64,000 bases of DNA from Nemertoderma westbladi. Its lineage: Eukaryota > Animalia > Xenacoelomorpha. Location of the stretch: NCBI GenBank assembly GCA_032718475.1, contig JAUCBJ010007419.1:1-64000 (forward strand), given 5' to 3'. The translations under genes were made by a program, and so were the position numbers. Positions 1 to 61,334 of this stretch are shown piece after piece; the stretch's first letter is position 1; the number at the start of each line of letters is the position of its first letter. The notes under the pieces were generated by a model, which saw only the letters and a list, made by a program, of their open reading frames with translations, ran no database searches and was not told the DNA's origin.

Positions 1-758
1 TCACAATTAATTAATCAATCAAATCGAAAGACAGCATTAACTCACTTAATTTAATTGCATTAATCATATTGTTTGTACTGTTATTTTACCGTCAGTTATT
101 AATTGTACCTATTTGTTGATGGAAATATTGCTATTTGGATAATACGGATAAATCACCCAATTCCCAATTTTCTTGATAACACTACAGGTTAGAGAGACCG
201 GCTATACATAACAATTGCGATTTATATTAATGTGGTGTGTATTGAATCCAATGTTATTTAGCAGACCCTACGTGAGTCAATTACTGCTCTCTTTATGTGT
301 GATCAAATGTACTGACTGTCGGCAGAATAGTGTGTATGATTGTGATTGGTAACAAAGTATTTCCTAAAGAATACGCTTTATACTTCAATCCCAAGCAGTA
401 TCGTTGCGTTTAGTATAAGTCTTAGTTCTGTTTAAATAGATAAAGCGCCACGTCCTAAAGGAACTGTTAATATTTCCCGAAAGCCAATAATACCTGTCAG
501 AGATTAATTAATAACGATCTATCGAATAATACATTAGGTATACACTGCAACCTTACACTGTAATAATACAATTCAAGCATCCGAATTCAGTCTCCCGGGT
601 GTAGATCCATCGGGTGAATGATCGCGCATGGGCTGACTTCGGCTAATGTTTTGCGTATTAGCATAAATTATTGTCGTATGCTAAAGTGGTTTTAATTAAC
701 GAAAAGACATATAAATTTTGGCAGGTTAAACTGCTAAAGGTCTTCGAAAGCGCGAACA
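1..758 (+). mobile_element. Right part of a BEL/Pao-family LTR (3' or solo LTR, runs off the window edge), related to the LTRs at 11299/25962
   Basis: Ends ...AAAGGTCTTCGAAAGCGCGAACA(758), matching the reverse complement of the 11299 LTR terminus TGTTCGCGCTTTCAGACCTTTGGCAGTTTAACC. Internal blocks are shared (GCGCCACGTCCTAAAGGAACTGTTAATATTTCCCGAA; CGGGTGAATGATCGCGCA). Confidence 0.85.
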
Positions 759-9792: not shown

Positions 9793-11298
9793 AATGTTGG
9801 AGTTTTAATAGTGGGTGTAAATTCGGTGTTTGTAAACGTTACCTGTTCGCCGATAACGTTTGGGAGCGGATTATTGGTGACTTAGTTACACACCCACTAC
9901 ACAGAAAAATGTTTTGTTTTAAAAAATTGTAACAATCGCAAAACAAATGGTTTTTAATAAAAATATAAGTAGTTGTGGGAACGAAATTAAAATAATTTTG
10001 AAAAATTCAAGATATTTTATCACAAATCTCACGAGTACATTGGATTAGCGATAAAACTGGCAAAGAAACGTTAAGCTGTTCAGTGCGTGAACCCAGACAG
10101 GCAAATTATTTTCATCTGATTCAACTTCATAGTTCATACCTTGACTATTTCCATTTTCATTTCCAGTTCCTAATTTTCATTTTCATTTTGTTTAATTTTG
10201 AATGTTATATTCATTTCATTATATTAATTCATACTTCATACATCAGTTTGTGCAATCATATTCATTGGGCGTAGTTTTGGAATTATTAAAAGCGAATTTA
10301 TTCGCGGCAAGTTTACTCTCGAAAAAATAAATTTAAAAATTTGAAAATTTAAATAGGTATTTATACTGATATTAAAAGGAAATTGGTATTAATCCGATAT
10401 ATTGAAACTTGGCCTACCTAATAGGTTGTTAAGTTCTATTTAAGCAGCTGGAAATTCCTACCGAACCCCGCGACGAACCCGATACAAAAGAGGTGTTCAT
10501 AAACCCCTAATATAGAGAATTCGCACCTCACAGCATTATACTGCGACGAGTTGTGACATCGCTGAGGTCACAACTGTAACTATCATTAATCGCCGTGAAG
10601 ATTGGATTGAGACGTTTTCCGGTCGAATTCGTCTAGAAACTTCGTCTAATCAACCCGTGAGTAAATCCGAGGTCGATGGATATTCGCGCCCATCTGAAGA
10701 CATCTAGATTTACCGATTTTAGAGTTTGGAAAACCAAAGGAAGGGGAAGAGGTCGAGTAGTTCCCGCTGAATTAGTTGGAGCCACTCGTAGTTTCAGTAT
10801 CGTAGACTTTGATAACCCGGAGATGGAAGAGGTAAAGCAATATCGTATCGAAGGGGATATAGACTTGAATTTGTTCCCAAGATATTAATAATATTAGCTA
10901 TTAAAATGTTGTAGTTTAGCTATTATTTAGTATATTATAAAGTCCCTTCACACGGAGCAACTATGTTGCTACAAATTATTATCGTGTTATATTTGTGATT
11001 GAAAGACAGTCACTGATTAATTGTCCGACTTACTCAATTTATATTTAATTTAATATGGAAATTGAATTAATTTGTATTATTCGATCGAAGAATCTTTCGT
11101 ATTTATGTAAAAGATTAAACTCATTATAATAATGGAAATTTATTGTGAAATGATAATGGTAAGCGAAATTAATATTGTTTTTTTTTGTAAATATAAATAT
11201 TTGGTAAGCATTAGTACACAACAATTTATTGCTAAGATATTTTCTTTTCAATGATGGATAAATAATACTAGTTACGCAAAAATGTATGAAGAATGTTT

Positions 11299-12472
11299 TG
11301 TTCGCGCTTTCAGACCTTTGGCAGTTTAACCCGCCAAATTAGGATGTCTTTTAGATAATAAATCACTTTTAGCCTATGACAAGTATTTGATTCACTACAC
11401 TAGTCGAAACCAATCTGTGCGCGATCATTCACCCGCTGGATATACCCGGGAGATTGGGTTCGATGGCTTAATCTTATTGCTATGTAAGCCTAATGTATTA
11501 TTCGACTGACAGTATTATATAATCTCTGACAATATTATTCACCTTCGGGAAATATTAACAGTTCCTTTAGGACGTGGCGCTCTATCTATATAAACAGAGT
11601 TATGACTTAAACTACTCACAACGATATGGCTTAGTTATAATTCACATATATGGCGCATTCTTTAGGAAATGCTTCGTTATCAGTCTCACTCATACACAAT
11701 GCTGCACAATACTGCACACTAATCTGCCGATCTTCACTGATTTTAGTCACATATAAAAGGAACACAGACTGACTCATGTAGGGTCTATCAAATAACATTA
11801 GATTCACTTCAAACCACTTTAACATAAGTCACAATCGTTATATGTAACCTTTCTCTCTTACCTTCGGTATATCAAGAATATTGGGTTTCGGGGTTATTTA
11901 TCGTTATTCCAAATATAATAATTCATCAACCATATTATGAAGGACCGACAGTAAATAGCAGTATAACAATATAAAGTATGCACAGTGTTTGATTAGGTAT
12001 GGTATGTTATGATTTGAGTTGAGTTGTTATGCAGTTTGCAGTCAGTTTTGTTATGATAACGGATATATGTCCTTATAATTAAGCCTACTAGTGTAAGGCA
12101 GAGCCGTTCTTCCGGGCTTAGAATCACCAACAACACTAAAAACTGATAAGAATAACCTTATTTACAAAAGCTTCCACCCACCACAGAGAATGAGCATACA
12201 GATAGGAAAATTAAGTTCAGTAGATCTGTGATAGGTCGAAATCAAAACCAACTCAAATCCTATTGGCAGATACAGAAAGCAGGGCTGTGGGGCAACCTTC
12301 CCAAGCTGGTTGGACGATCAAACGTAGCCCAGATCCCTTCATACAGCAAATCAGCCAATCAGCCGGTAGCTTGCACTATTCGAGCTAGAGATCCCTTTTA
12401 GAGTATTCCAGCGCCTTGGGGGGAACTGGTTAGCAAAGCAAACGAATCAGTTATCCCACAAAAGCTTTTACA
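11299..12472 (-). repeat. 3' LTR of element 2
   Basis: Near-identical to 25962-27135 (about 6 substitutions by eye); preceded on the minus strand by a purine tract. Confidence 0.97.
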
Positions 12473-12480
12473 CCGCTCCC
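12473..12480 (-). promoter_or_regulatory. Polypurine tract (GGGAGCGG) of element 2
   Basis: Minus strand reads ...CTGGGAGCGG|TGTAAAAGC, directly abutting the 3' LTR. Confidence 0.75.
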
Positions 12481-15400
12481 AGAAAATGGGATTTAAGTCT
12501 ATAAAATATACAAAATCACAGTTTCTAAAATACGAGAATACTCTAAACAGTTAGTCTTTCTTGCGCAGACGGCGTTTACGCAGTTTTTTAAAGCTAGCAA
12601 GAGTCTTTTTCTCTTTGGGGCGAGCCACTTTACAAGGAGGGCTATAACTCCTGGGTGAAGGGTGCAATATGATTGCATCAGAAGGTGTGGGATTATAGTC
12701 GGGGTATCCGCCGTTTCAATATGTTTCTCCTCGAGCTGATTTTCCTCCGCTCATCGTTGGATACGTTCGTCTAAAACTCTCGCCGAGAATAGGGTCGTCT
12801 AAGTTCAATATCGTCTTAGAGACTATGGATTTCCCAATCGAACTGGGATAAAGCCAATCCGTTTACCGCTTGGACTTGCTGTTATAATTTAGGTTTATCT
12901 GAGCAAACGTAGATTTCTTTTCTGATCTTTGTAGAATAGCGTCTATCTCTTTTCGTACAACGCCCTCCTCCACCTTGATGACAGGTGGTATCGTGTTAAA
13001 CGGGAACGATTCCGATTATACGATTGAATGGCGATATCGGGTGCCCGTGCCCCAATCCGGCCAGGTAAGATGGGCGGATATTTAGGGAGCCCACAACCTG
13101 AGTGCCACCGACTAACGGTTGGGGTAACACTGGATCTCTGAACGGTAAGTACAGTTCGTGATAATCCGTGATACTGTTAGGATCAAGAGTCTGAGGTCTA
13201 ACTAAGGAATGAGGAGGTCTGACCGAGCATTCCGGAACTCAGATCATAGGTCTACTCAAGGATCGCCTGAGTCGAGAGAGCGTGGGTAACACATCGAACA
13301 AGTTTCTCCCGAAACTCCCGCAAACACAGCGAGCAAACCGCGTTCAAAGCAACGTCTCCACTGGTGTTCATGTCTTTCCGTTTGTTGGTTGGTCTAGGGC
13401 ATTTATCGTAATAATACCAAAGACGCACGTCTTGTAGGGGAAACGCGGATGATATTTATTTGTTGTTACAATGCTTCTATCAAGAATTCCAAATATATGT
13501 TGGAGTTACCGCGTTTATTTGTTTCTTTAATGTCTTTTCTTTCGAGTCGATTTCGAATAGGATTTTCGCATTAGAATTTTGGTTTATCGTTTCGACTCCT
13601 CTGGGTAGGATATGTTCGACATAGTCCGTATCGTGTAAATCGATAGAATGGCCAATGGTTAAGAAGTCCATATACATACCATTACAATGCGTGTAGCGAG
13701 CGGTGAATTTTCCATAGCCCAATTCACGCGTAAGTTACTTCCATGAAATCGTAGGCTCGATATAACGACCATCATCCTTCGTAGTAGTTGGACTAGTATC
13801 ACCGCGTATCAAGCTATCAACAAACGCTTGAAAGTAGAGTATATCGCTCCCTGATACCAAGACCATCTTCTATCAACTCCGTCATATCTGCTATATATGA
13901 GTTTATTAATATTATAATGAGTTTATATTTAGGCTAGCGAGCGTCGCTGCCTACCCCAATCAGCCCCCGGACAGTGCGAGATCCTCAGCACCGATGTGTC
14001 GTCGCCGCTGTACTTTCGCCAACGACGTAGCCGCACAACGACAACGACAACCGGTACAAGTCACTCGACTGTCCGTCCCAAAGGCTTAGATACACCTCAG
14101 GTTCTTACTGGAGAGTTAGGGTTACTTTCACAATTGCGACTCGCTACTGTAAACACACCTTAGTAGTAACATTCGCCTATAAACTCACAAATACCACACA
14201 CACAACTTGTCACAAATTACACACACTCGGGTCACTTGTCCGTTAGTCAATGCCTTCCAGAATGTCACTGTATTATTATGTATCCTTGGATACTATCAGT
14301 GCACTATTTATTCCCTATGCTATTCAAGGGGACAAGCTTTCTATTGTTCTTTTAACTCAATTCTAATTCTAGCATGGTTGTTGCTATGGTGACATTATGC
14401 AAAGCTAGCGGTAGAATTAGGGTAATTCCAATGCATACAGATCTGGGATGTTATTTAATAGTAATTCTTTAATGGTCAATGTCCTGTTTTACATATGGCT
14501 TTATGAATTTTATCGGCTATTGACTATGTTTGGGAGACTTTCGCACATTCATACGCATAATAAGATAATCTCCGCTCCCTTGATCTATTAATTAATGGAA
14601 TTTTGGGAATGTTATAAATTGCGCAAAATGGCAATTTATTAAATTCATTAAAAGGCATGAATTTAAATTTATTCCCTGAAATTTTATTATTTGATAATTA
14701 AATTGACATGTTTTGATTCTAGAACATGTCTGGGGACACAAGATCCTTAATTCTATGAAAATTGTCTTTTTAAGAATATCGGTAAATGCTACGATGTCTT
14801 AATTGACTAGAATTGTTGAAGGATCTGAATTTTACAGATTTTGATTTATTAGATTTGCAAATATTAAATTATTAATATTTGAGATGGGCACCGATTTATT
14901 CCAGAACTTGTCTGGGGACGTTAACCACTGATTCTAGAATTTGTCTTTCAAGTATATCGGTGGGTGCCGCGATATCTTAATCGACTAGAATTACAGATGG
15001 TCAAAGGGTTTAACAGATTTATTTTGCGTTATACGCTACTGTTAAAGGGACATCACGCTACTATATGTATTATTTAATATACGGTATGAGAGCAATATCG
15101 CACGAAGCAATGTCAGTGTGAAGAGGCAAGTCGTTTCCAAGGTCTACCCAGAGCTTGGTTTAGCTGAGACACGAGGATCTGAACTTTGCATTCCTAATAC
15201 TCTGCCTACCAATAATACTTGAATATAGTAGTGGCTTTATTGTACTTTAATAAGTACGGACATTTCATCTTACTGTAGTTACGTATATATAATATAATAC
15301 GAACAGTAAGGAAAGAGAAAAAGAATTATTTCTCGCCGTCGCACTAAATATAATATAAGTAATTACGTACGCAATAACATGAACATATTGCACTATTCTA

Positions 15401-15535
15401 CTAAATAATCGCTAAATAATATTCTACTAAATTAAATAAAACGATTATAATAAAATTACATAGTAATACATACATAAATATAAAAATAATAAAATAATAT
15501 AAAATAATAGAGTCACACGCCCACTCCGAACGATA

Positions 15536-18500
15536 TTAAGTTGGGGAGTCCCTAGATGTCGGTTGGATTAGGGAAGTGGTCGTGGGAAGAGTTTCTTGCC
15601 TTCCATAGTTTCCGGAGAGCTCTCTGTCTCTTTCCAGTAAACATAAACGACCCACTGGGCGATTGAGCTGTTGAGTCTCAAAGACTATCCCTGGTTTCTT
15701 AAAGTTACGGCGCATGATGACGAGTTCTACTGATCGCACCAAACCATCGCTCGAGATATGAGTCTCGATGATACGTCCTGTTTGCCATCGCTTACGTGGG
15801 AGATCGGGGTCCACAATAAGCACCATGTCTCCAGCGCTGACGTTTTCTTGCTGAGCAAACCACTTAGTTCGAAGTTGTAGAGTGGGCAGGTAATGTTTCT
15901 CGAAATGGTCAGCGAAACGACGGGATAGCAACTGCATAAGTTGCCAGGTTCGACGGCAGTACTCGTCTCCGTCTGTGATCTCCGATCGTGGGAGCATGGC
16001 TACGGGTTTCTTCAGTAGAAAGTGCGCGGGTGTTAGCGCTTCCAGGGAATCAGGACTTGAAGAGACTGGCATAAGCGGTCTTTCGTTGAGATAGGCGGCG
16101 ATTTCCTCCATTAACGCCCGCAATAGTTCGTCGGTGAGATAAGCGCGACAAGGCACAATAAAGTGGAACGCAGTCTTCACGCTCCTAATCAATCTCTCCC
16201 AACTTCCTCCCCACCAAGGGGCGTCGGCGGCGTTGAAGGTCCAGCTAGACGCTGTTATCCTTAGCTGATCGTCCACCTGTCTTTTGTTCCAGTCCTTTAC
16301 GTAAGCTTGAATTTCGTTGTTGGCGCCAATGAAGTTCGTTCCCTTATCTGATCTCATCGTGTTACTGGTTCTGAAACGAGCAATCTGTCATCGTAAACTC
16401 AACACGAAGCTGTTGGTGGATAGATCGTTTACCATATCGAGATGGATAGCTCTACAAGTCATACAAACGAAGATGACACACCATCTCTTGACTATAGTCC
16501 GGGCACGATATACTTCAATAGGGCCAAATAAATCCACACCGGTATTAGTAAAGGGTGGTTCATAAAAGCTTACTCTTTCCCTAGGTAATTCTGCCTCTCG
16601 CTGTGTCAAAGGCCTACTGAATGCTTTCCTACAGGGTATGCAGTTCCTAAGGACTTGGTTCAGAGCCCTACGGGGTTTATAAAAATAGTAGCGAGTTCGA
16701 ATTTCGCTCAGAACTCGTTCTCTTCCAGCATGATACAGTTTGCTATGAACATCTACAATCATCTTGATTTGTATGTCAAGATTTCTAATAAGTATGGGAA
16801 ATTTAGTGTCAAAGGATAATGGGGCGTTGGTGAGCCTGCCTCCAACACGTATTAACCCATCTATCATGGTACTAGAGAAGCGATCCCTTAAGCGCATCTG
16901 CGGATTTCTTAACAACAGGAAATACTTATCGGGATCCTCATAGCATTGTAGGAGTCTCAGCATCTGTTTGTTGGTTTCATCATGCTCCTGGTAACTGATC
17001 TTCTCCTTTAGAAACCTGTCGGATATCTTGTATTGGGGAAGATCTTTAACAACATGGACTCGTGCAGATGTTGATGGAGCATCATCACTATTGGTCTTTG
17101 TCCCGGAGTAACGATGATGAAAACATCGTTTTAAATAGGTGACGGCTTTACAGAGCCGATTCCAGGAGCTGTAGTGACATATCGCTCTCTGCAAGAGGGG
17201 TGAGAGTCCTTGCGCGATATCTGGTATTCCGGATTTCCAATCCTTGTCACGGATTTCCAAGACTTCTTTAGTCGTGGCGGTGGGTTTCTGATCCAAAGCA
17301 TCCTCTCCAGAAGTAAATAACACAGATAGATCAACCGTAGGTTTAAACAACTTCGATTTACTCGCTCGAGTTTTGGGTTTAACTTTCTCCGCTCCCTTGG
17401 CCTGTCTGATCTCTGCTGTTGTGAGATGGGGAGGCCATTCTTCTTCTTCTCTGTAGAGAAAGTCAGGTCCTCCTAACCATTCGGGAGTATTTACCAATTC
17501 CTTTGGAGTCGCTCCCCTGGAAGCGATGTCTGCTGGATTAATCGTTCCGGGGCAATGTCTCCATTGATCCATCGTCGTGCGACTAAGTATGATGGCTACT
17601 CTGTTGGTAACGAAGACGCTGAACTGACAGACTTCATTGGTTATATACTCTAACACGAGTAAAGCGTCGGTCCAATAGACCGTTTTCTCTAATGGATAGT
17701 CAATCTGTTCTGTTACATTCCGGCCGATGGCTGTAGCGTATAGAGCCGCCTTTAACTCCGCTCGAGGAACTTTCAACTTGTTGTTGATTAATGCCTTAGA
17801 AGTAACCAAGGCGACTTTGATTCCATCCGGAGTTTCCACTCTTAGGTAGGCTACTATACCTATTCCCATATCGCTGGCGTCTCCAAACACATGGAGTTGA
17901 TAGGAATACGTAGGGAGAACATGACCAAAATATGAACGGGAAATTATAAAATCCTCGATAGCTGGCAGAGAATCTTCCCATTTCATCCACTTCTTTAATA
18001 ATTCTCCCTTAAGTGGATCATCCCATGAGTGGTTTTCAAGCCACATTTGCTGTACCAAACTCCGAGCAATCAATATAACTGGGCTAATAAATCCCAATGG
18101 ATCGAAATAAGTGCTCAGTATACTTAAGCAAATCCGTTTGGTTCGAACTGGATTATCTCGCTGTTTTAGCTGGAAAAACAGGATATCTCGCTCTGTGTCC
18201 CATTTCAAGCCGAGTGTCTTGGTTTCTGGCAGATCATCTTTGATCAAATCGAGATCTTTCGCTCCTCGATCTTCCGCAGGGATCGACTCCAGAAACTCAC
18301 GGGAGTTGCTGGTGAATTTCGTTAATCGAAACCCACCTCTTTTTAAGCACTCTACCGTTCCTTTAGCGACCTCAATGGCTTCCTCAACTGATGGAAGGGA
18401 CTTCAGATTGTCGTCCATGTATATGTCTCTCTTGATGTTGTCGATCACTTCCTTAGAGAAGGCCTCTCGGTTGTCCTCTGCAGTGGTACGCACTACCGAA

Positions 18501-21500
18501 CAGGCGTTGGAAGGGCTTGAGATTATCCCAAAGGCCTGGATGGTCATCCAATACTCCACCGGTTTCTGGTTGAGGTCTCCTTCGGGCCACCACAGAAATC
18601 GTAGACTATCTCGATCCCTATCTAGTACCTTGACTTGTAAGAACATGCCTTCTATATCGGAGGCGAAAGCAATCGAATATTGTCTCAATCTTAAAAGAAT
18701 TCCCAACAAAGATTGAAGTAAGTTGGGTCCGGGTAACAATTCAGAGTTAAGGGATTGACCCATGTAAAGAGCGGAGCCATCAAACACTACTCTCACTTCA
18801 TGTGGTTTACCGGGTTTAGGAACGTAATGGTGAGTTAAGTAATACGTTCTTTCAGTCACAGGTGTTTCTTCCGGTACTCTCTCCGCGTATCCCTTACTAA
18901 TAAATTTCTCCAGCTGTGTTTGATACATTGCTTTAGCTGAAGAATTAGCCGTAAGGCATCGATGGAGTTGTGCGATTCTTTTTTCCGCCAAGGGTCTGTT
19001 ATTGATGAACTTCGGTTCTCTCTTGCGGAAAGGTAGACCGACTTCATACCTACCTTGATCTTTGAGGAAACGTGTAGTTGTCTCTTGGATCTGCTTGGCC
19101 CTTTCCTCTTCCACTGACAAGGCTTTATCGTAGGAATTGGGCTCTACCGCCTCTTGCGTAAAGAATCGTACGGCATGTTCATCTCGAGTCTTGGCATTAC
19201 AACGCTCAATGACATCATTTAGCTCGTCGTTATAAGCTTCTCGTTCAGATGGATAAAGAAGTTGACATAAGTTCACTTGGTTTTGCCAAGCCTCGTTTTC
19301 CTTAAGGAGGTCGATGGTATTTTCCTCATCAAAAAGCTGGTGCACGTCGTCGTTATCTGAGGAGTATGGGGTTCCCTCAGTTAAATCGTCTCCCTCACTA
19401 GTATCATCTTCCCATTCACTCACCTGGTAGACGCGCTCTTGCGGTAGTCTTTCTCTGAGTGTTCTACGGGAAGGGCCAGTAAAGTACCAACCTACTCTAG
19501 TTCTTACCGCATAGGTCTGTAGTGGCTGCGGTTGAGCAGGCCGTTTCTCCAATGTCTCCAGCGCCTCATGCGCGTTTTGGCCGATGAGTATTTGCACTCC
19601 AGGATAATCAGTCTGGAATCGAGGTATGTTAAGATGTTGGATGCTCTCATCCTCGTCCCAATTATAAAGGTCTGCTTGAGTAGTAGCGAAGTTCTTTATA
19701 GCCACCATTTTCACTGACCTTATGCTATGTTCTCCTAGTTCGTCCTGGGGGGTGGACAATGCTCCTACATAATAATCCGCGGTTATTGTAGATTTCCAAA
19801 CTTGCATAATGCCGGACATGTTGAGCTTAGTTTGGAACTTGGGTTGTTCAGCAAATATATCTTCGGCTAGCTCTTTGTCGATGAATGTTCCTGTACTACC
19901 GGAGTCAAGGAGGGCGTTCACTACATAACTCCTCTTAGGTCCGTGAACCCTTACTTGCACCACAGGAAACTCTCGGATCCCTACATTGGAAGATGGCTCT
20001 TTCCAAGATGGTTGTCGTTCAGAAGTGGTTAGAGTGAAGTCGCTGTCTGTATCCTTTTCATATGTGAGTGCTCGATACACTGCGATATTTATCATATAAC
20101 AGGATTCGTTTTCGTCGGAGAACTCGTCCGTATAGAATCCTTCCATGTCAGATTGATCAGTGTCGTTCACATCACTGAATTGGACATGTAGTTCGGAATC
20201 ACTTACCTGATTAGGACTATTTCGATCGAATTCAGCGTGCAACAAGATATGATGTTTCGCACCACACTTTGCACACCTTATGTCTGAGTAACAGGTTCGC
20301 CGTTGATGTCCTTGTCTGAGGCAATTATAACACAACCGCTTGTCCCACATGACTTCACGTCTCTCAGTTAATGATTTCTTTAGAAATTCATCACACATAT
20401 TCAAGCGATGGGTCCCATCACATAGCGCACATTTTGGTTTGATGTTACTCACCTTAATCTGAGTCACATTGTGTACACTTGCCTTTTCTTCGGGCTTTCT
20501 CACCGGAATTCTCTTGGGAGACGTGGGAGGAGTTTTTCTTACCTGTTCTCTCCTGTCATTTGCTCGAGACTTGAATTTACTTACCTGATCTTTAGGCATT
20601 TTATTGACATAATAAGATCTATCAGTGTCTTTCCCGCTATCTTCTCCTTGAGAAGTCTGGCTTTCGCCGTCGTCTGTATAACACACTGGTGTTACCTTTC
20701 TCCTAGAGACGGGTTTTTCACTTACCTTGTTTTCCGGTGTCTTCTCTCTGGACAGTTTCAGGAGCTGTAATTTCACTTCTCCATCTAGGAATGACATGAG
20801 ATCAGCCATGGTAGGGTCTCGTCGTTGTTGTTCCATCATATATAACACTTTCTTATCCCAGCGTGTACCTACTCCACCCTTCGGTAAAGTAGAAGCCACT
20901 GCTCTAATAACCATAGCATTCTGATACTCCTGAGACTTACCTAGCCAATCTAATTGTCTACAGATCTCATGAATCTCATCGGAAAACTCGATAATTCCGC
21001 TGCTAATAAACTTTTGGGGCGCTACCAACTTTGCGTACAAATACCCAGCGATGTTATTCCTATTACCATACCTGATGTTTAGTGTATCCCAAACTTGTCT
21101 TAATCCGTCTGGATGTCCAATAAACTTTAACGCCATTAACTTGGGAGATCCTTCCAAGCACTCGATGAGGTATCTAAGTTTTTCTCCATTAGATAGTACA
21201 GAATTCTGTATGTTATCTTTGTAATATTCATTAAAAGGTAACCATTTCATCTCATCTCCATTGAACTTGACAATCTCTCCCACCTTCACCGCTTGCCGGG
21301 CTTCGGTTCTAGCCATTTGACGCGTAAAACTTTCTTGGGCCATCGTCTTATTTAATATCGAGTTATCGGTATATAAATTTCTCGGATTATGATCAGGTCT
21401 ATAGGGAATGTCATTATCAACAGGTCTATAATTACCCTTAATAGGGTTCACTATAGGAGTTTCTACTTCGCTAGCAGTATATATGCGTGTAGGCTCCACA

Positions 21501-23701
21501 CCTTGCGCATGAGATACTTCAGACCTAACAGGTTGACACATTGTTACCGAGGGTGGTGGTATTTGTGTATTTACTAATTTATCGCGTTCTAGCGCGATAC
21601 TTTGCTGCACTTCTTGCAACTCTAGCCTACTTTCCCTTACTGTGCCCTTGAATTGCTGAACAGTCTCCTGCATCTGCCCGAGCAGGAGATCCATCCCCCG
21701 CCGTCTCTCGTCCACCCATTCGACCGCCGAAGCGGGAGTCGCTAACGTTGTAGCGGGCGGACGAGGGACAACGGGCGACAAATCATGAATATTTCGCTCG
21801 GGGTCCAGGACTTGAACTGTCTCCTGGGCAGTTCTACTGGGCACAGGTAGCTTAGTGCTATGCAGAGGGAATTTAGAGGTAGCTTCAGGGAGCACAGGTG
21901 TATCTATCACCGAAGGGGTGATTTCAAGAACAGGCCTAATTATTTCAGGCTCATCTACTATAGTAGGGAGTCTTTCTATTTTAATTATTTGGTCTGTGGG
22001 CTCTGTACTACCTAAGTTGGTGTTATTTAGTTGCCTTCTAACAGCTGGAGGCAAATCAGGCAATTTCTGACGGTGGAATGTTCTTTTACGTCTGCTTAGA
22101 CGAGATCTATTTCCTTTGCCTTCAGTATCGGTGGTATCGCCTTCCTCAGATGATGTATATCCCTGTCTTTTGGGAGTAGATCGATTCATCATCTGCATAT
22201 TACTAGCTGTTAACTGTTTATTTATGCAGTCTTGATTCTCCTGAATGTTTTCCAATTCTAATTGGATGGTTTCTTCAGCCGCTCTCCGTTCTGCTTCTGC
22301 CACTGCCTCTGCCGCTTTTCTTTCCGCTTCGGCCGCTGCCATTGCCGCCTTTCTTTCTGCTTCTGCCGCTGCCATTGCCGCCTTTCTTTCTGCTTCTGCC
22401 GCTTTTGCCTCTGCCGCTGCCTTTGCCGCTGCCGCTGCCGCTTTTCTTTCAGCTTCGGCCGCTTTTGCCTCTGCCGCTGCCGCTGCCGCTTTTCTTTCTG
22501 CTTCTGCAGCTACCACTGCTGCTTTCTTTCTGTCTTCTATGCGTTTTTTCTTTACTTGTTCTTCTTGGACTCGTGTCAGGCGGAGTTGTTCATCAAATTT
22601 AGCCTGATTCGCAGCCCTCATTTCCACATCGATGGCATCCAACACAAGCTTGGTTCCTTCACTATTAGGGCTAAGTCCCTCTAACCTTCTCCTCAACTCG
22701 TCATCACCTAAAAAACGTTGATAGTCTGACAGATAGATGTCAATGGCATCCCTCTTATGCGGTTTCTCTGCCGTCGCTTCACTTTCCACTTGGGAAAAAG
22801 TAGCTTCTGTTGATTCTCCATGGGTTGAGCGCTCCTCCAGCTGAGCTTTCCACTGAGCTGTTCCTTGAACCTGGAGACTCACCCTTTGAAACCAAGTCTT
22901 TACGGCAACTTGCAACGACGTGTCTTGCCTTCGTTTAGAAGCCTCCTCAAAGGCCGATAATATTAGCCTGATTCGTAGAATTCTTTCTCTAACTTGATAA
23001 AGCAGTTGTCCCTGCTCTTGAGGTCCTTGTGGTTGTTGAAACAGTTGTCCTTTTACTCGCTCCATAGAGCTGAAGAATCCCTGTGCGTATCCGGCTGCGG
23101 ACCTCTTCCACACAGCTGGATCGATGGTTTCCTTGGCTACTCCCATCCGGTGTATGTCTTCCCAGGCAGCTTCTGATAAATCAAACGGGAGTCCGGGTCT
23201 GGGGAAGTTCCATTGCGACTCGACCATGGACTTCAGTTCTTCCCTTGTGTATCCAGCATAACTATCTCTAGTTGAACGCTGGCTTCTCGCCCAATCGATC
23301 TGGTGTTCTTCCACAGCGATCAATAACCTAGTGAGTACGGCTGCAGGAAGGATGAGAAGGGGATCCGAATAAACCGCATCCATCATCTTTGCTCCGCGTT
23401 CTGGTGTCAGTTCTACAGTATCCTCACTACTGGAGCTGTTGGGCCGTTGAGAAGTAAGTTCTTGGCTCGCGGGTTGTTGCTGTTCCGCTGCTTCTTGGTC
23501 CCGCTTGACCTGAGCTCGAGTGCCTATGATAGACCTACGATGTTGGACCAGCCTAGGTTCTTTTATTACTACTGGAGGGATGACCTTCCTCACCGTGGGA
23601 GGTGAACTGAACTTACGACTAGACGGTTCTACACCTTTATCTGAGTCGCAGATAGTTACATCTAATAAACTGTCTGACAGGTTCTGCTTAGTATCAGACA
23701 T
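15536..23701 (-). CDS. BEL/Pao Gag-Pol polyprotein (~2720 aa) with a single in-frame TGA at 16388-16390 inside integrase
   Basis: The 2437-aa and 273-aa ORFs are in the same frame. Motifs: CALC..H..C/CYNC..H..C/CAKC..HH.LLH, ALLDSGS, IYMDD, FGDAS, PRAEL, YWTDA, NPADIASRG, HAG..CIPC, GVDLFGP, SDKGTNF, GGSWERL. Ala/Glu-rich AEAERKAA repeats in Gag (22260-22520). Confidence 0.95.
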
Positions 23702-25078
23702 GTTTATGTGTACAGTTGAATGTCTACTGCTGTATTACAGTCTGAGCAAGTCTAGTAACTCAGTATTAACTGATAGCCTAGTAATTAATTACCGGTACTG
23801 CTACTCAGTGTAGCGTTATATATATAATATATTAGAATACCGGTATGCTTAGAGTATATATAACTATTATTACAGACTAGGTTTATCACAGAATACCGGT
23901 ATAATTTTAGCACAAATATATATAAATATATAATAGGCCTATCGGGAATACCGGTATACAACTTACAGTTTTGTAGTATATATAATTATAATTCTGGACT
24001 AGAATTAATTATAAAGTACCGGTATAGTTTCAGCCTAAATTTATAGAAATAAAGATAATAGGCCTATCGTAAATACCGGTATATCAATTATTTTAAATAA
24101 TTGAATTTCTGAATTTTTGGGTTACTTGGTTACTTTACTTACTTTATTACCGTTATTTGAGCAGTAATCCAACTGATATTGAGACCTAATGGTTGTATGG
24201 TAGGCCTACTATTTATAAATCGTTAGATTTGATTTATAATATATATATACCCGTTTTAATGGGTTTTTTCAATGTTTGAAATAAATGTTATTATTTCTGG
24301 GGAGTAATTACTACACAAAGCGGTACGCTTTCAGTGAAGTGTTACTTATAGGACACTAAAACAAATAATGCTAATTTACCTAAGTTACTTAATACTACAA
24401 ATTACGTACGATTCGGGTTGAGATTACAATCTCTAAATAAACACAAAAATTTACAAAAACACAAAATACGAATTTTTAGGGTAATTTTACAAGAAGTCTA
24501 CAAACCAGCCTAACAAAGGGTTAGAATTCTGGTTATTACAACGGACAGGGTACTGCGGTATTTGAAAATAATACGTAGTAGTAAATACACTGCGTTGTCC
24601 AGATAGGAAAATACCACCGCCTGACGACCTATAGCCGTATCGCTATAGGTACTACATTATGTATCACGGAGTGTTCCCACCTAGAAGTTAATAGAGCTAA
24701 TCGAATGTGCCTATCAACCACTTTACAACACAAATATAATGTCTACACTAATTACTTTCGGAAAGCACTGTACACTAAACCCTAAATTAGGTACGAGTAC
24801 TTGTACAACATATAATCAGTAGTTAAATATACTTGAACAGTTAAAAGAACCACGGCATCTGCTGGAGTGACCAGTGCACAAAATCACCAGTCTTTACCTA
24901 CGCCAAGCAGCCCGTATAGTACCGGGGTTAATTTAACTATAACGGTATGTATAACAAACACAATTATTGTAGGAACAAACTTGGGGAATGAATGTTGCGA
25001 ATAATCGCATAAACTCTGAATAATAAATATTACGCTACGCGTACAAACCACTCAAACAAAATGCAGACCAAATACTGA

Positions 25079-25595
25079 CAGACTACCATCAAGCCTAAAT
25101 AAACTACAGGACATGCAGACTCCGAAATGATTAGGTAGTATGCGTTCTAACCCAGTAGTACGACTTATTCTTTAGTTGGGGGTTTACCTTACAGCATTGG
25201 CTGCCCCTACTTCCTAACCGTTCTTTATCGGACAGAGGCTCTACACACACTGCAATCCGTTCAGACCTAATAACAGCCAGACAACTATCCAGCCTACAAA
25301 TTATCTAAATAAATATTATACGCTACCAGTACAGACTTACACAAACAAAGTACAGACTCAACGATGGCAGACTACTCTCAAGCCTAAATAAACTACAGGA
25401 CATGCAGACTCCGAAATGATTAGGTAGTATGCGTTCTAACCCAGTAGTACGACTTATTCTTTAGTTGGGGGTTTACCTTACAGCATTTGCTGCCCCTACT
25501 TCCTAACCGTTCTTTATCGGACAGGTGATCTACACACACTGTAATCCGTTCAGACTTAACAGCAATCAGACAACAGCCCAGCCTACAAATTGTCT
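25079..25595. repeat. ~225-bp direct repeat pair (289-bp spacing) in the long 5' UTR of element 2
   Basis: AAGCCTAAATAAACTACAGGACATGCAGACTCCG...CCAGCCTACAAATT occurs at ~25091 and ~25380. Confidence 0.9.
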
Positions 25596-25948
25596 GTACA
25601 ATATGATCAGGCTTACACGCCTTCTGTTCAATACTGGCCTACAAACAAATAAAACTGACAGAAATAAGTAAGCTCCAAAAGAAACAAGGGGTGTACAGTC
25701 CCTAATCTCTTAAACAGCCTACCGGTATACAACAATCAAATCGAATAATACTAATGTACTTATACGGGAAGTACCGGTTAGGACAGTTAGGCCTACAGAC
25801 CTACAGAAGTACCGGTTCTGGCAGTTGGACCTACGGACCTACGGCAGTACCGGTTCTGGCAGTTGGGCCTACTGACCTACAGATGGACCGTTCAGGTTTA
25901 CCGGTTGACCGGTACTTTCAACTTTATTGCTTACTGCAATAAAGAAGT

Positions 25949-25961
25949 ATATATCCGTTAT
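25949..25961 (-). promoter_or_regulatory. Primer-binding-site position of element 2: non-tRNA sequence ATAACGGATATAT, complementary to its own LTR
   Basis: Directly follows the 5' LTR end on the minus strand and lacks TGG. Perfect 13-nt complement at 26719-26731 (and 12056-12068). Confidence 0.7.
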
Positions 25962-27135
25962 TGTTCGCGCTTTCAGACCTTTGGCAGTTTAACCCGCCAA
26001 ATTAGGATGTCTTTTAGATAATAAATCACTTTTAGCCTATGACAAGTATTTGATTCACTACACTAGTCGAAACCAATCTGTGCGCGATCATTCACCCGCT
26101 GGATATACCCGGGAGATTGGGTTCGACGGCTTAATCTTATTGCTATGTAAGCCTAATGTATTATTCGACTGACAGTATTATATAATCTCTGACAATATTA
26201 TTCACCTTCGGGAAATATTAACAGTCCCTTTAGGACGTGGCGCTCTATCTATATAAACAGAGTTATGACTTAAACTACTCACAACGATATGGCTTAGTTA
26301 TAATTCACATATATGGCGCATTCTTTAGGAAATGCTTCGTTATCAGTCTCACTCATACACAATGCTGCACAATACTGCACACTAATCTGCCGATCTTCAC
26401 TGATTTTAGTCACATATAAAAGGAACACGGACCGACTCATGTAGGGTCTATCAAATAACATTAGATTCACTTCAAACCACTTTAACATAAGTCACAATCG
26501 TTATATATAACCTTTCTCTCTTACCTTCGGTATATCAAGAATATTGGGTTTCGGGGTTATTTATCGTTATTCCAAATATAATAATTCATCAACCATATTA
26601 TGAAGGACCGACAGTAAATAGCAGTATAACAATATAAAGTATGCACAGTGTTTGATTAGGTATGGTATGTTATGATTTGAGTTGAGTTGTTATGCAGTTT
26701 GCAGTCAGTTTTGTTATGATAACGGATATATGTCCTTATAATTAAGCCTACTAGTGTAAGGCAGAGCCGTTCTTCCGGGCTTAGAATCACCAACAACACT
26801 AAAAACTGATAAGAATAACCTTATTTACAAAAGCTTCCACCCACCACAGAGAATGAGCATACAGATAGGAAAATTCAGTTCAGTAGATCTGTGATAGGTC
26901 GAAATCAAAACCAACTCAAATCCTATTGGCAGATACAGAAAGCAGGGCTGTGGGGCAACCTTCCCAAGCTGGTTGGACGATCAAACGTAGCCCAGATCCC
27001 TTCATACAGCAAATCAGCCAATCAGCCGGTAGCTTGCACTATTCGAGCTAGAGATCCCTTTTAGAGTATTCCAGCGCCTTGGGGGGAACTGGTTAGCAAA
27101 GCAAACGAATCAGTTATCCCACAAAAGCTTTTACA
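25962..27135 (-). repeat. 5' LTR of element 2
   Basis: Copy of 11299-12472; upstream of gag on the minus strand. Confidence 0.97.
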
Positions 27136-27308
27136 TGTTTTATTTGCTAATTTTGCGTATTGTGCATTATTCAATCTTTATTTGACTATTAATATGTGTC
27201 TATTTTAGTTTATAGAAGTATAGAAGTATAATTGTGAGACATTAGAAACTACGTTATGCCGGTGTTTGTAAACGTTATCCTTTAGACGATAACGTTTAGG
27301 AGCGGTAT

Positions 27309-28916: not shown

Positions 28917-29860
28917 GCCAAGGAATGCCTGTTCACCACCATGGGTGATCTTCCACAGTAAACCCTTCCACTCTGTTTCCTAAAGGAATGCCTGTTCACC
29001 ACCATGGGTGATCTTCCACAGTAAACCCTTCCACTCTGTTTCCTAAAAGGAATGCCTGTTCACCACCATGGGTGATTTTCCACAGTAAACCCTTCCACTC
29101 TGTTTCCTAAAGGAATGCCTGTTCACCACCATGGGTTACCTTCCACAGTAAACCCTTCCACTCTGTTTCCTAAAGGAATGCCGGTTCACCACCATGGGTG
29201 ATCTTCCACAGTAAACCCTTCCACTCTGTTTCCTAAAGGAATGCCTGTTCACCACCATGGGTGATCTTCCACAGTAAACCCTTCCACTCTGTTTCCTAAA
29301 GGAATGCCTGTTCACCACCATGGGTGATCTTCCACAGTAAACCCTTCCACTCTGTTTCCTAAAGGAAAGCCTGTTCACCACCATGGGTGATCTTCCATAG
29401 TAAACCCTTCCACTCTGTTTCCTAAAGGAATGCCTGTTCACCACCATGGGTGATCTTCCACAGTAAACCCTTCCACTCTGTTTCCTAAAGGAATGCCTGT
29501 TCACCACCATGGGTGATCTTCCACAGTAAACCCTTCCACTCTGTTTCCTAAACGAATGCCTGTTCACCACCATGGGTGATCTTCCACAGTAAACCCTTCC
29601 ACTCTGTTTCCTAAAGGAATGCCTGTTCACCACCATGGGTTATTTTCCACAGTAAACCCTTCCACTCTGTTTCCTAAAGGAATGCCTGTTCACCACCATG
29701 GGTGATCTTCCATAGTAAACCCTTCCACTCTGTTTCCTAAAGGAATGCCTGTTCACCACCATGGGTGATCTTCCACAGTAAACCCTTCCACTCTGTTTCC
29801 TAAAGGAATGCCTGTTCACCACCATGGGTGATTTTCCACAGTAAACCCTTCCGCTCTGAT
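28917..29860. repeat. 63-bp tandem array (~15 copies) derived from the adjacent SINE tail
   Basis: Unit AAGGAATGCCTGTTCACCACCATGGGTGATCTTCCACAGTAAACCCTTCCACTCTGTTTCCTA. Confidence 0.95.
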
Positions 29861-30037
29861 TCCCAAGTTGCCTTGCTTCCCATTCATCGACCACTGAAGG
29901 GTGAAGGCCAGGGTTGGGCTAGGCTGCAGCATTTAAAGCACTGTGACCGAACAGTGCTGACCACTCTAGCCTAGGGGTCGAACCAGTGCCTCTTGATTGG
30001 AAGCCCGGGAGTGGCACCACTAGACCAAGCTGCTGCT
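29861..30037 (-). mobile_element. tRNA-derived SINE head and body
   Basis: Minus strand has A box TGGTCTAGTGG (30027-30017) and B box GGTTCGACCCC (29984-29974), then a central CCAACCTGGCCTTCACCCTTCAGTGGTCGATGAATG segment resembling conserved metazoan SINE central domains (from memory). Confidence 0.75.
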
Positions 30038-33819: not shown

Positions 33820-35540
33820 TTTTATTCCAAAATTGTAACATTAATCAACGCCGTTTGTATTAACAGCGAGTTGTTACTTAACACCTTACAACTTTAGAGG
33901 ACATTACATCATTGTATTGGCCTGTACATTTAGTATTGTATTTGGTGTTATTGTTTACGTGGTAACCATGACGGCATTCCAAAATTAAAATTGTAACATT
34001 ACTCAACGCCGTTAGTATTAACAGCGAGTTGTTATTTAGCACTTCACAACTTTAGAGGATATTACAGCATTGTATTGGCCTGTACAATTAGTATTGTACA
34101 GTATTTGGATTTTATTTACGTGGTAACCATAGTTTTTTTTTTAAGTAATGTCCCCCTTGTGGGCATTACTTAACACCGTCATGGTAAACAATACACGTAA
34201 ACAATAGGTGGAGATTTGCCTGACAGCCAGATAAGCCTTCTGCATTACTTACCGGTAGCGGTAGGCGGGGTATAGCTACTGTATTAATAACCAGTAAGCC
34301 TAGCTATATTATTATAACATGGCTCCAAACGCCACAATAAATATAAGCTAACTTATTTATAACATCCTGTAATTTATGTCATTTTGACATTTATTTATAG
34401 AGCAACTAATATAGTTTGTGCATGTATATGTACAATCATTTCGTGATGTTAAAATTTTGGAATAAAACTATATACATACTTGTTGCAAAGTACTTTACAG
34501 TGTTTCCTCGTGGCTTTATTTTCACCCACTCACTAACGTTCGTTCGTGTAACAAAGCCACTCAGATCATCACACTGTAAAGTGCTACTTTACACACAAGT
34601 ATGTAAATAGTTAATAAATTATAGCAGCTACTACAGTATATAACATTTATGTTATATACTTAACCTTTAAAGTTAGAAGCAGTCTTGCATAGTCCGATAT
34701 AGACTTCCTCCATTTGCTTTCTCTCTCTCTATATATATATATAGGGTTCTATAGATGAGAGTAATTCATCAAAGGATGAAATTGACATTCTCGTACTGTA
34801 TATGTAATTATTAAAAAATTTCATTTATTTATTTTATAACATCTGCCCGCAATTCTTGATAAAGTTTTCCGATAACGCAGTACAACAACCTTTTTTGATT
34901 GATCGGGTGAACCCAATATCTGCGTTTATTTCGCCGCCTATGTAAGGCATTATGCTAATATTACATCATCGATTTAGTTATCCATATTAATAACTATCTA
35001 CATACTTGTGTGTAAAGTAGCACTTTACAGTGTTATGATCCGTGTGGCTTTGTTACACGAACGAACGTTAGTGAGTGAGTGAAAATAAATCAACGAGGAT
35101 CAGAACACTGTAAAGTACTTTATTCCAAAATTGTAACATTACTCAACGCCGTTAGTATTAACAACGTGTTGTTATTTAGCACTTTACAACTTTAGAGGAC
35201 ATTACAGCATTGTATTGGCCTGTACATTTAGTATTGTATTTGGTGATATTGTTTACATGATAACCATTGACGGCATTAAGTAATGTCCACTAAAGGGACA
35301 ATACTTAACGCCGTCAATGGTTACCACGTAAACAATAGGTGAAAATTTGCCTCACAGCCAGATAGGCCAACTGCATTACCTACCGATAGGCGGGGTATAG
35401 CTAAATAACCAGTAGGGCCTAGCCATATTATTATAACATGGCTCCAAACTCCGCGATAAATATAAGCTAACTTATTTATAACATAATTTATGTCATTTTT
35501 ACATTTATTTGTACAGCAACTAATTTAATTTGTGCAGCTT
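33820..35540. repeat. Duplicated ~420-bp dispersed repeat flanking a palindromic element (34487-35120)
   Basis: TTCCAAAATTGTAACATTA.TCAACGCCG.. starts at ~33824, ~33977 and ~35123. ~120-bp inverted arms at 34487-34607 and 34999-35120. Confidence 0.75.
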
Positions 35541-36406: not shown

Positions 36407-38761
36407 TCAATCATGTTCTGTAAATTTAATACACGGGACACCATAAAGATGATCGCTTTTAGTTAAAGCAACAAAATTATTTGTGAGTCTGGAACATTCC
36501 AAAACAAGCTTACCAGAATGCGATAGTAAAAATAAAGGACAATAACTGGACAAACACCGTTTTACATCACTTGAAACAGAAACGCTATCTAATATATCAA
36601 TGACACGTTTACCAGAAAATAATGAGCAAAGGCAATATAACAAACCGTCATTTAGTAAAACAATGTGTTCAATCTTTAAAAACCTAATATCCAATCCTGT
36701 AACAGAAACGGCGAAGTATGATGTTGATAACATCTTACGCTTGTAATTAAAAGAATGAAAAACAATGTTATTCACAAGTACCCGATATGCCACGCTTACA
36801 ATTTCAGACACTTGAATACCATATAAATCTTCTAAATTACTCGGGAGAACCTTTGGGGAATCTAGTTTACCAATATGCTTAATTTGAGAAACGCTTGACG
36901 CAGTACCTTTATGTTCCATGTAGAGTTTCTTTCTTAAAAACCGTTTAATAATAATACTTGCTTCATTTCGGTTTCCTGAAACAAGGCATTTTAAATGATG
37001 AAAGGCACTCTCAAACATTGCGGCTGATGAGGATTGCAAAGGACCTAACAATTCGACTTGCTTGGGAAGATGAGACAACACATGTAGGGACAATGTTTGA
37101 GAACCTTCACCAAATAATACTGGAATAAATTGTCGCACAAATCTTATTAAAATACTGCTGTCCTTGATCTGCTCCTTTGTTATCGTATCACTTAAAAGTA
37201 AATGAAAAATAATAGAAAAACCAGTAATCAAAACAGTAACTCTCTTATCAGCAGCAGTTATATAGCACAAAAATATTGAATAATACAAGTAAAATGATTT
37301 AAACTCGGTTGCCTTCCAGAATCGGAAGAGTTCTAATGCACGTGGTTTTCTAGAAAATGATATAGGCAAATTTATACTTTTGAGGTGTCGAGAGATTTCG
37401 TCTTGATTTATAAGTTTGTGGAGTACTAAATGACGTAGCAAAGTTTTGCCAATACCTAGATAGAGTAGGTGCATTGGATCAAAGGGAGCACTGAACGGTA
37501 AATTATCTATAATCTGAGCAAGTGGAGTAATACCCTTTACACCATACTGTATCTCACCCAATCTTACCGCATCTTTTGCAAATGAGTCATGGTCATCAAC
37601 GCTTCTCAATGCAGACGGAAAAGTCTCATAAGGAAATATCATTTTACGTAAAGCTGTATTATATGTACCCCTTATCAAACACCATGGACATCCATAATAA
37701 CCATTATGATGTGATATGTTTAGTGCATCAGATTTCGCTGGCATATCAGCGATAAGGATGACTGTCTTCAGTTGCACTACTAAACCATGATAATCAAGAT
37801 AAAATTGTTTTATATTTGCGGTAGCTAGATCAACTAATTTTAAGACATCTGGTTTTTCACTACCATGATACAAGGAAATTAAAATTAAATTCTCAAATCT
37901 TAGCCTTAAATGTAAAGGTAGATTTACTACACAGGCCATAAGAGGCCATAAACAGAAACCTTTTGATTTATGGACAGGAACAACTCCATCTGTATTTATA
38001 CATATATAAATATACCGTTCAATGGGTGTATCGAGTAAAGTGAATAAAGTACCATCAGTAATATCTGAATAACCGGTGTTAAGTATCGGAGGTGAGAAAT
38101 TTAAAAGAGAGGGATGCAATCTTAACAAGGCTTCTATTTGCTCCTCTAACTCAACAGTGTAGTAAGTATTTGAACCTTTTTGGTTAATCACAGTCGATGA
38201 AACTACACAGCACTCTGAAAGCTCTTGTCCTTTAAGTTCTGAATAGTGTGGTATACAATTTGGAATTGGTAAGATATCAGAAAAAAAATCCAGCAATGCT
38301 TTAGCAGCAGCATCAGTAATATGATGTTGCATAACAATGCCCATAAATCTACTTTTAAAATCCTCCTGAGACACATGGGAACCACAATAAAGAAACTCAA
38401 CATCGCTGTCATTATCTGTATCGGGTAGGCTGCTGCTTGCATTACTGCAGTCAAATGGTATTGGAGAAGACGTAATTTGATTACCAAAACACAATAAGCC
38501 CGAAAATCTCCCATAATCTACATTATTGCCACCATCAAAACAGTCTGACAAAATACTTTCCTCAACAGGATCGTCTGGTACACTGGGAATATAATTAGAT
38601 GAGTGTGAGAGAGTTTGATGTGTTCCGAATAAATTATGTATTTCATCACTAGAAGAAGACGATGTAGATGGTAATCGTTTTCTCACATTAGATTTGGCGT
38701 ACGTAACAACACGATTTAACTTTCTTGATTTACGACAATAAGGTTTCTTTCTCCCACTCAT
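36407..38761 (-). CDS. EnSpm/CACTA-type DDE transposase, 784 aa, intact
   Basis: INTDGV...LWP...NLP..LR...N.IL; ADMPAK...HNGYYGCPWC; FDPMHLLYLG; RKPR...WKATEF; HVLSHL..QV..LGPL...SA..FES. Confidence 0.92.
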   Translation of the reverse strand: MSGRKKPYCRKSRKLNRVVTYAKSNVRKRLPSTSSSSSDEIHNLFGTHQTLSHSSNYIPSVPDDPVEESILSDCFDGGNNVDYGRFSGLLCFGNQITSSPIPFDCSNASSSLPDTDNDSDVEFLYCGSHVSQEDFKSRFMGIVMQHHITDAAAKALLDFFSDILPIPNCIPHYSELKGQELSECCVVSSTVINQKGSNTYYTVELEEQIEALLRLHPSLLNFSPPILNTGYSDITDGTLFTLLDTPIERYIYICINTDGVVPVHKSKGFCLWPLMACVVNLPLHLRLRFENLILISLYHGSEKPDVLKLVDLATANIKQFYLDYHGLVVQLKTVILIADMPAKSDALNISHHNGYYGCPWCLIRGTYNTALRKMIFPYETFPSALRSVDDHDSFAKDAVRLGEIQYGVKGITPLAQIIDNLPFSAPFDPMHLLYLGIGKTLLRHLVLHKLINQDEISRHLKSINLPISFSRKPRALELFRFWKATEFKSFYLYYSIFLCYITAADKRVTVLITGFSIIFHLLLSDTITKEQIKDSSILIRFVRQFIPVLFGEGSQTLSLHVLSHLPKQVELLGPLQSSSAAMFESAFHHLKCLVSGNRNEASIIIKRFLRKKLYMEHKGTASSVSQIKHIGKLDSPKVLPSNLEDLYGIQVSEIVSVAYRVLVNNIVFHSFNYKRKMLSTSYFAVSVTGLDIRFLKIEHIVLLNDGLLYCLCSLFSGKRVIDILDSVSVSSDVKRCLSSYCPLFLLSHSGKLVLECSRLTNNFVALTKSDHLYGVPCIKFTEHD

Positions 38762-39158
38762 ACTGAATTAAATGTTAACGAAATTATTACATATTTACAG
38801 ACAAAAAATATACTGAAAAACATACTAAAAAATAAAATTCAGAAAAGATGTGCTAACACTACTCTAATTTTATATAAGTGGCAGGGGCTGGTAGGCCTAT
38901 CATATGGAAAAAAATAACAAAATTATATATTTTCCAAATTACGATGAGTTTAAATGCAATCTATAAAATAGGAAAGATATGTACAAATAATAAAAAATAT
39001 TCCAACCAAGACCTGACATACTTATTAAGGTTTAAAACATCAAATCGAGTTACTCATATGAACGGGTGGCGATTAGTAATATTAATATATGTAGAAAGAA
39101 AGTACTGCATAGAAGTGCTACATAACAATTACAAACAATTTTGCACTGCAATCCTAAC

Positions 39159-61277: not shown

Positions 61278-61334
61278 TATTAATACTACCAGTAAGGAGT
61301 AAAGCAAACATACTTGGTTCGGTAACAACAATAA

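Follow-up and report, generated by a model that had tools for sequence, protein, structure and literature searches.

The stretch of DNA analysed here (the window) comprises 64,000 nt of a Nemertoderma westbladi contig (JAUCBJ010007419.1) and carries on its minus strand a full-length LTR retrotransposon of 15.8 kb, which we call element A (Table 1). Its two LTRs show 6 differences per 1174 nt and are thus 99.5% identical, which indicates that this copy is young. The gag-pol reading frame encodes a DUF1759 gag, zinc knuckles, a protease, a reverse transcriptase (RT) with the YMDD motif and then a Pao RNase H (PF05380), which contains what we take to be the usual acidic motifs. Its 3′ part holds the start of an integrase, and the integrase is broken by one stop. 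The presence of DUF1759, PF05380, Integrase_H2C2 and DUF5641 identifies element A as a member of BEL/Pao; the Pao-type Gag and Pol domains follow the order PR-RT-RH-IN, and the layout of paired TG...CA LTRs, polypurine tract (PPT) and short target-site duplication is also that of the group. A search with the protein returned 775 homologs at E ≤ 1e-50; all 120 matches listed contain PF05380, and the named ones among them belong to echinoderms, cnidarians, molluscs, a nemertean and a hemichordate. Scans of viral_contigs found no relatives among viral contigs. The ICTV gives the Belpaoviridae (Semotivirus) a genome size of 4.2-10 kb and an 18-nt primer-binding site (PBS) matched by host tRNA-Arg or tRNA-Gly (PMC8742986). 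Canonical BEL/Pao elements share with element A the domain content and order, the LTRs, the PPT and the 5-bp target duplication, whereas element A exceeds them in span and has no PBS complementary to the 3′ end of a host tRNA. The tRNA site is a descriptive trait in that profile, whereas Pol proteins are what delimit the group; it is therefore by its proteins that element A is filed under BEL/Pao, with the textbook tRNA trait failing.

Table 1. Positions of the features of element A and of other repeats in the 64,000-nt window.
Feature	Position	Strand	Description
5′ LTR of A	25962..27135	-	1174 nt, TGT...ACA
3′ LTR of A	11299..12472	-	1174 nt, TGT...ACA; contains the other 13-mer copy (12068-12056)
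Target-site duplication AAACA, 5′ side	27136..27140	-	5 bp
Target-site duplication AAACA, 3′ side	11294..11298	-	5 bp
Polypurine tract GGGAGCGG	12473..12480	-	adjoins the 3′ LTR of A
gag-pol ORF of A	16388..23701	-	ended by an in-frame stop inside the integrase
Remaining integrase of A (DUF5641)	15536..16387	-	same frame, past the stop
Candidate tRNA-independent PBS of A	25949..25961	-	directly after the LTR CA, no TGG
Candidate self-primer 13-mer of A	26719..26731	-	LTR positions 405-417, exact PBS complement, intron-free
TATAA	26736..26740	-	4 nt before the candidate primer of A
Conserved island, about 40-45 nt	26718..26762	-	from the depth profile among divergent A-family copies
U5 hairpin	25980..26001	-	retained, despite letter changes, by the sister LTR at 1-758
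Leader hairpin, predicted	25919..25947	-	directly 3′ of the A PBS
Repeats and hairpins of the A leader	25022-25595, 25768-25890, 23853-24083		
Sister-family LTR, 3′ part	1..758	+	about 71% identical to the A LTR; primer position outside the window
Tandem arrays (63, 41/119, 40, 52, 48 nt)	28920-29863, 43293-44282, 46937-49840, 50730-55703, 61331-63999		

Several other features surround these. Within the 2.2-kb leader of element A there are a tandem duplication of 289 nt and several short repeats and hairpins centred on ACCGGT. Between its pol and 3′ LTR (12472-15536, minus strand) lie 3 kb with only short frames (80-84 aa) and a PPT-like purine run directly after pol. This segment may be what is left of an additional gene; by tblastx it did not match the 3′ region of a second, broken BEL, element B. 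The pol of element B runs from 1725 to 9792 on the plus strand, with about 45% RT identity to element A, and B is the nearest row to A on the tree described below. No 5′ LTR or PBS could be assigned to element B, and the window holds no second copy of the conserved island. A hairpin-plus-purine motif located after the pol of B (9824-9869) recurs just to the right of element A (27260-27306), where it is followed by a PPT-like GGAGCGG; this suggests that A inserted in the 3′ region of B and that the 3′ LTR of B starts near 27307. The segment at about 930-1720 (minus strand), between the LTR ending at 758 and the gag of B, looks by eye like a fragment of a non-LTR (LINE-type) RT. An ORF at 36407-38767 (minus strand) with weak Transposase_21/DUF1258 matches, near inverted repeats (34505-35337), is probably a CACTA-like DNA transposon, and the window as a whole is rich in satellites.

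Directly after the 5′ LTR, the minus strand of element A reads ATAACGGATATAT (25961-25949). A sequence-only reading of this DNA had claimed that no TGG follows the LTR, that the LTR itself contains the exact complement of the adjoining 13 nt in both of its copies, and that pairing would end exactly on the first base after the LTR; all three claims hold, with 13 of 13 nt matching and the coordinates right. The 13-mer, which is AT-rich, has no further copies in the window besides those in the two LTRs. Among 20,000 dinucleotide shuffles of the A LTR, none reached a 13-nt match at offsets 0-3 and 8 reached 12 nt, and when 13,459 internal positions of element A were used as anchors, the PBS was the only one with a 13-nt match to the LTR. 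ARAGORN predicted no tRNA in the window, and an Rfam search gave only one chance match (E = 3). A reading in which the same 13-mer is assembled across a 212-nt GT-AG intron was discarded, as its donor is weak, its acceptor is purine-rich, and the sister LTR at 1-758 lacks its AG. In that sister LTR, the homologous 13-mer does fall just left of the window, as had been anticipated (LTR position 444 corresponds to window position 8). The LTR continues for 757 nt past the primer in element A, compared with 67-202 nt in the relatives with split primers. Downstream of the primer, the A LTR also contains a strong donor (AAG/GTAAGA) and a CAG acceptor (26524-26387, minus strand), both with counterparts in the sister LTR; they may delimit a 138-nt 5′-leader intron, which would shorten the long R-U5.

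To place this arrangement among its relatives, we used those fetched with the RT-RNase H alignment, 79 loci on metagenome contigs (from the best 80 of 558 confirmed) and 15 on genome contigs, which together make 94 loci that fall into 62 clusters, most of them at 38-45% identity. As many of these loci share a small number of accession series, they probably represent only a few host species, but the families are deeply divergent on the tree. The 15 loci L080-L094 are BEL/Pao elements in contigs of prokaryotic MAGs, most likely animal host DNA binned there, and L017, L018 and L019 are tandem BEL copies arranged head-to-tail, with shared LTRs and a 6.1-kb period. The test set consisted of 20 families, element A and 19 clusters in which a direct repeat defines the 5′ LTR end; LTR ends were trimmed by eye by 1-9 nt in L024, L035, L052 and L057, a fixed 600-700 nt was used for L023, L057 and L088, where the LTR start is unclear, and ten clusters without usable upstream DNA fall outside the counts. 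A TGG after the LTR is missing in element A and in 18 of the 19 relatives. The only TGG-type PBS, that of L039 (843-862), resembles the tRNA-Tyr 12-mer of a published table, and L039 has no self-match with its own LTR. In the other relatives, the longest plain complement is often 5-9 nt and lies directly after a pyrimidine tract and an AG, and the match is completed once a single GT-AG intron is allowed.

When the PBS of each family was paired with its own LTR or with those of the others, requiring only GT and AG, a GTRAG donor lay at the best junction in 12/20 own pairs compared with 9/380 swapped pairs, and none of 100,000 permutations reached the observed sum. With strict splice sites and offsets 0-4, a PBS-LTR match of at least 10 nt was found in 16/20 own and 3/380 swapped pairs; these settings were chosen after the data had been seen, offset 4 and one non-GTRAG donor being added then, and two of the three passing swapped pairs join sister families with the same PBS core. 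The match is of the spliced type, forming solely across a predicted GT-AG intron with consensus sites, in 12 of the 16 families (L001, L002, L007, L026, L035, L042, L046, L052, L063, L070, L074 and L088) and unsplit in the remaining four (A, 13 nt; L024, 12; L083, 11; L005, 10). Besides the tRNA-type L039, the misses are L023 (7-8 nt, spliced), L057 (9 nt, spliced) and L080, whose junction, read by eye, has one mismatch. Primer lengths in the passing families are 10-15 nt, most often 11, the PBS starts 0-4 nt after the LTR, and the primer ends 3′ in AC or AT at all 14 listed spliced junctions and in the four unsplit cases. A second set comprised 35 loci with inferred LTR ends, of which 8 were too short and 27 were scanned: 9/27 gave a strict spliced match of 10-14 nt, compared with 1/27 on the reverse strand, and three more (L010, L012 and L072) have plausible unsplit matches. 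The 24-nt contiguous rows of this set (L062, L093 and three controls) were rejected as edge artefacts, L055 and L084 were left unclassified, and an initial scan for junctions that left the LTR ends free gave noisy output and was taken only as a lead. The sequence-only reading had named co-variation between PBS and LTR across related BEL families as the way to check its proposal of a self-priming BEL lineage, and this co-variation is what we found. The proposal is thus partly borne out. Self-priming gains strong support, but it is not peculiar to element A: the pattern runs through a broad BEL/Pao clade at 39-45% RT identity, in which a predicted LTR intron, not visible to that reading, is usual.

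The split primers of the relatives, 9-15 nt long, consist of 3-9 nt and 4-10 nt on either side of a predicted GT-AG intron of 71-426 nt. Splicing raises the predicted probability of the PBS-primer helix in 14/14 relatives, to at least 0.68 in 11 of them, while the predicted fold of L001, L088 and L057 is poor even when spliced (0.01-0.09). On an RT-RNase H tree of 34 rows (another was built with 55), elements A and B belong to a 7-row clade (100/99) together with the spliced L001, L002 and L057, the unsplit L005 and the tRNA-type L039. The position of L039 inside this clade could reflect either a reversion to tRNA priming or a root near there. Unsplit primers occur at no fewer than four places on the tree, with five state changes in all, and the unsplit L012 is sister to the spliced L017. 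Forcing the unsplit rows, along with B, which has no assigned PBS, into a single clade is rejected (p-AU 2e-56). The root rests on divergent rows with no named outgroup and does not settle whether introns were gained or lost; the simplest account is that they were lost repeatedly.

Copies of the A family were compared through contigs of public runs (X1-X5), in which depth does not equal copy number; X1 and X2 represent a single sample, possibly the source of the window, X3 and X5 belong to other studies, and X4, which is only guessed to be RNA, barely covers the region of interest. These contigs represent many divergent copies, among which a conserved island stands out, limited by 26718/26720 and 26757-26763, with loose ends piling up at both limits. 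Depth in X1 is about 490,000 over 26730-26744, at most 1,100 below 26710 and about 14,000 at 26765-26789. The 3′ edge of the island coincides with the 3′ end of the A primer, beyond which the sequence is divergent, and on the 5′ side the island reaches 26-31 nt upstream of the primer. With a transcription start at 26731, it would cover about −31 to +14 and may thus consist of a core promoter and the primer. For an RNA starting at 26731, the 13-bp helix is predicted at about 0.8-1.0 per pair, and the value falls to about 0.53 for a start at 26760, about 0.05 at 26800 and 0 at 27135, folds of long RNAs being only indicative. The predicted fold consists of the central duplex and separate U5 and leader hairpins, with long-range side duplexes at a probability of 0.49 or less. 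Together, the island edges and the folding models point indirectly to a transcription start near 26731.

It is nevertheless conceivable, if unlikely, that transcription starts elsewhere, for example at about 26710, and that the self-encoded primer acts in trans or from the 3′ end of the RNA, the 13-mer being delivered to the PBS either by the 3′ LTR copy or by a short, separate transcript of the LTR. The TATAA just upstream of the 13-mer, which the sequence-only reading had pointed out and which is indeed present, would favor this, since as a TATA box it would place the start site downstream of the A primer. Moreover, promoter signals at the 5′ edge of the primer are weak across families, with YA at the first paired base in 7/30 (background 11%) and TATA near −30 of the primer in 2/30, and complementarity by itself does not separate cis from trans. 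However, the sequence around 26710 is the most variable among A-family copies, the island extends to about −31 from 26731, and L001 and L083 have TATA-like motifs some 30 nt upstream of the primer. Furthermore, since the relatives pass their intron on, the primer-building splice in them would take place on a copy that does not template U3, that is, on the 5′ copy or a separate RNA, with the 3′ copy templating the new LTR, which argues against a start site downstream of the primer.

Still less probable, in our judgement, is that the pairing is a selected RNA structure, such as a translation or packaging switch or a splice sensor, and that a host RNA such as a tRNA half primes reverse transcription. 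Half-tRNA priming does exist in Copia lineages, according to the available text of PMC6317226, and a PBS variant of the A family looks uncompensated. This variant, at 25957 (PBS position 5), accounts for a depth of 103,012/203,554 in X1, 61,756/123,154 in X3 and 16.6/18.8 in X4; a compensating change at 26723 is absent from the two variant positions listed, neither of which is in the 13-mer, and the contigs covering 26720-26757 have 2-3 differences each at positions not given, which limits the reading of 26723. In one X3 contig, primer position 8 is altered in a way that preserves a G-U pair. Against a host primer, the 20 post-LTR sequences differ by family and track their own LTR rather than a common host RNA, the paired stretch stops 0-4 nt from the LTR end and has a fixed AC/AT terminus, the sole relative with a tRNA-Tyr-like PBS is the one that lacks a self-match, and the searches of the region for tRNAs and Rfam RNAs found none. 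Finally, chance complementarity in AT-rich DNA of an element with a decayed PBS, a reading to which the composition of the 13-mer and the broken integrase of this copy might lend some color, is effectively refuted by the shuffle, swap and permutation results, and the conserved island and the youth of the copy also stand against it.

The absence of a tRNA site and a 13-nt PBS complementary to its own LTR make it likely, with a probability of about 0.8 on the sequence comparisons, that element A primes reverse transcription with its own RNA. Weighing against this reading are the common variant at 25957, the TATAA so close to the primer, the weak promoter signals, the lack of confident side duplexes, the long LTR segment after the A primer, and the families whose matches are short, mismatched or poorly folded. 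Under self-priming, transcription would start at or just before 26731, and the first 13 nt or so would pair with the PBS, which in the predicted fold places the 3′ end of the primer on the first base after the LTR. By analogy with Tf1, the RNase H of the element's RT would cut just 3′ of the duplex and free a 3′-OH, from which RT would copy U5 and R back to the cut and then jump to the 3′ R; the primer and U3 would be copied from the 3′ LTR copy. In intron-bearing relatives, the primer would exist only at the 5′ end of the spliced RNA, while the unspliced 3′ LTR copy would transmit the intron. Occasional splicing of the 3′ copy may give rise to intron-less lineages like A, and repeated intron loss is the outcome expected from occasional reverse transcription of a spliced 3′ LTR. 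Element A is thus a probable intron-less representative of a BEL/Pao lineage in which splicing usually puts the primer together, and self-priming would be a trait of the lineage rather than private to A. More generally, we consider it fairly probable that a large and widespread branch of animal BEL/Pao elements has dropped tRNA priming and lets the host spliceosome build its primer through removal of a cap-proximal LTR intron, with intron-less lineages arising repeatedly from reverse-transcribed spliced 3′ LTRs.

The closest known parallel is the Tf1/sushi group of Ty3/gypsy chromoviruses (Tf1, Tf2 and Tj1), in which, as in element A, the PBS after the 5′ LTR complements about 11 nt of the element's own LTR; element A shares with them a non-tRNA PBS that adjoins the 5′ LTR and co-varies with its LTR complement between families. 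In Tf1 the first 11 bases are described as pairing, with an RNase H cut between bases 11 and 12 (PMC7175516), and a three-duplex "pretzel" structure has been described (PMC10085805), whereas the folding models of element A contain no confident side duplexes of that kind. Unlike the Tf1/sushi elements, element A has BEL/Pao proteins, no chromodomain and a much longer R-U5, so it is not a member of the group, and the intron-split primer of most of its relatives is absent from the descriptions of Tf1 available to us. Element A would thus work like Tf1 but outside the Tf1/sushi group. Outside the core Tf1 group, self-priming has also been predicted from sequence for the Tcn1 clade and for the plant Copia TAR lineage (Houba, Osr-1) (PMC6317226), which implies that more than one origin is possible; these belong to other superfamilies than element A, and the available text of that paper does not mention a splice-built primer. 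As for BEL/Pao itself, the available text of a BEL survey does not discuss the PBS (PMC3118150; 0 term matches), that of the Sinbad paper has no matches for PBS, tRNA or priming (PMC554778), that of PMC6238403 has none for PBS, and those of PMC3601003, PMC13524379 and PMC7472051 contain nothing on BEL self-priming. Among titles and the openings of abstracts, a scope with subscription papers and Repbase reports mostly outside it, we found no published report of a self-primed or splice-primed BEL. Within this literature, a primer made by splicing joins two steps of the retroelement cycle in a manner we did not find described.

If this reading is correct, the junction of about 11 nt would be present only at the 5′ end of the RNA, so that splicing would act as a licence for reverse transcription and the 3′ repeat would be protected from cutting. 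Annotation tools based on the PBS would miss or misjudge self-priming families, which would also escape silencing by 3′ tRNA fragments. BEL/Pao is reported to rank second in abundance among LTR element classes in the animal genomes surveyed (PMC3118150), and if a major clade of it self-primes, the official ICTV description of the group as tRNA-primed would be wrong for many of its families. In this context, element A provides the intron-less comparison case for splice-built primers.
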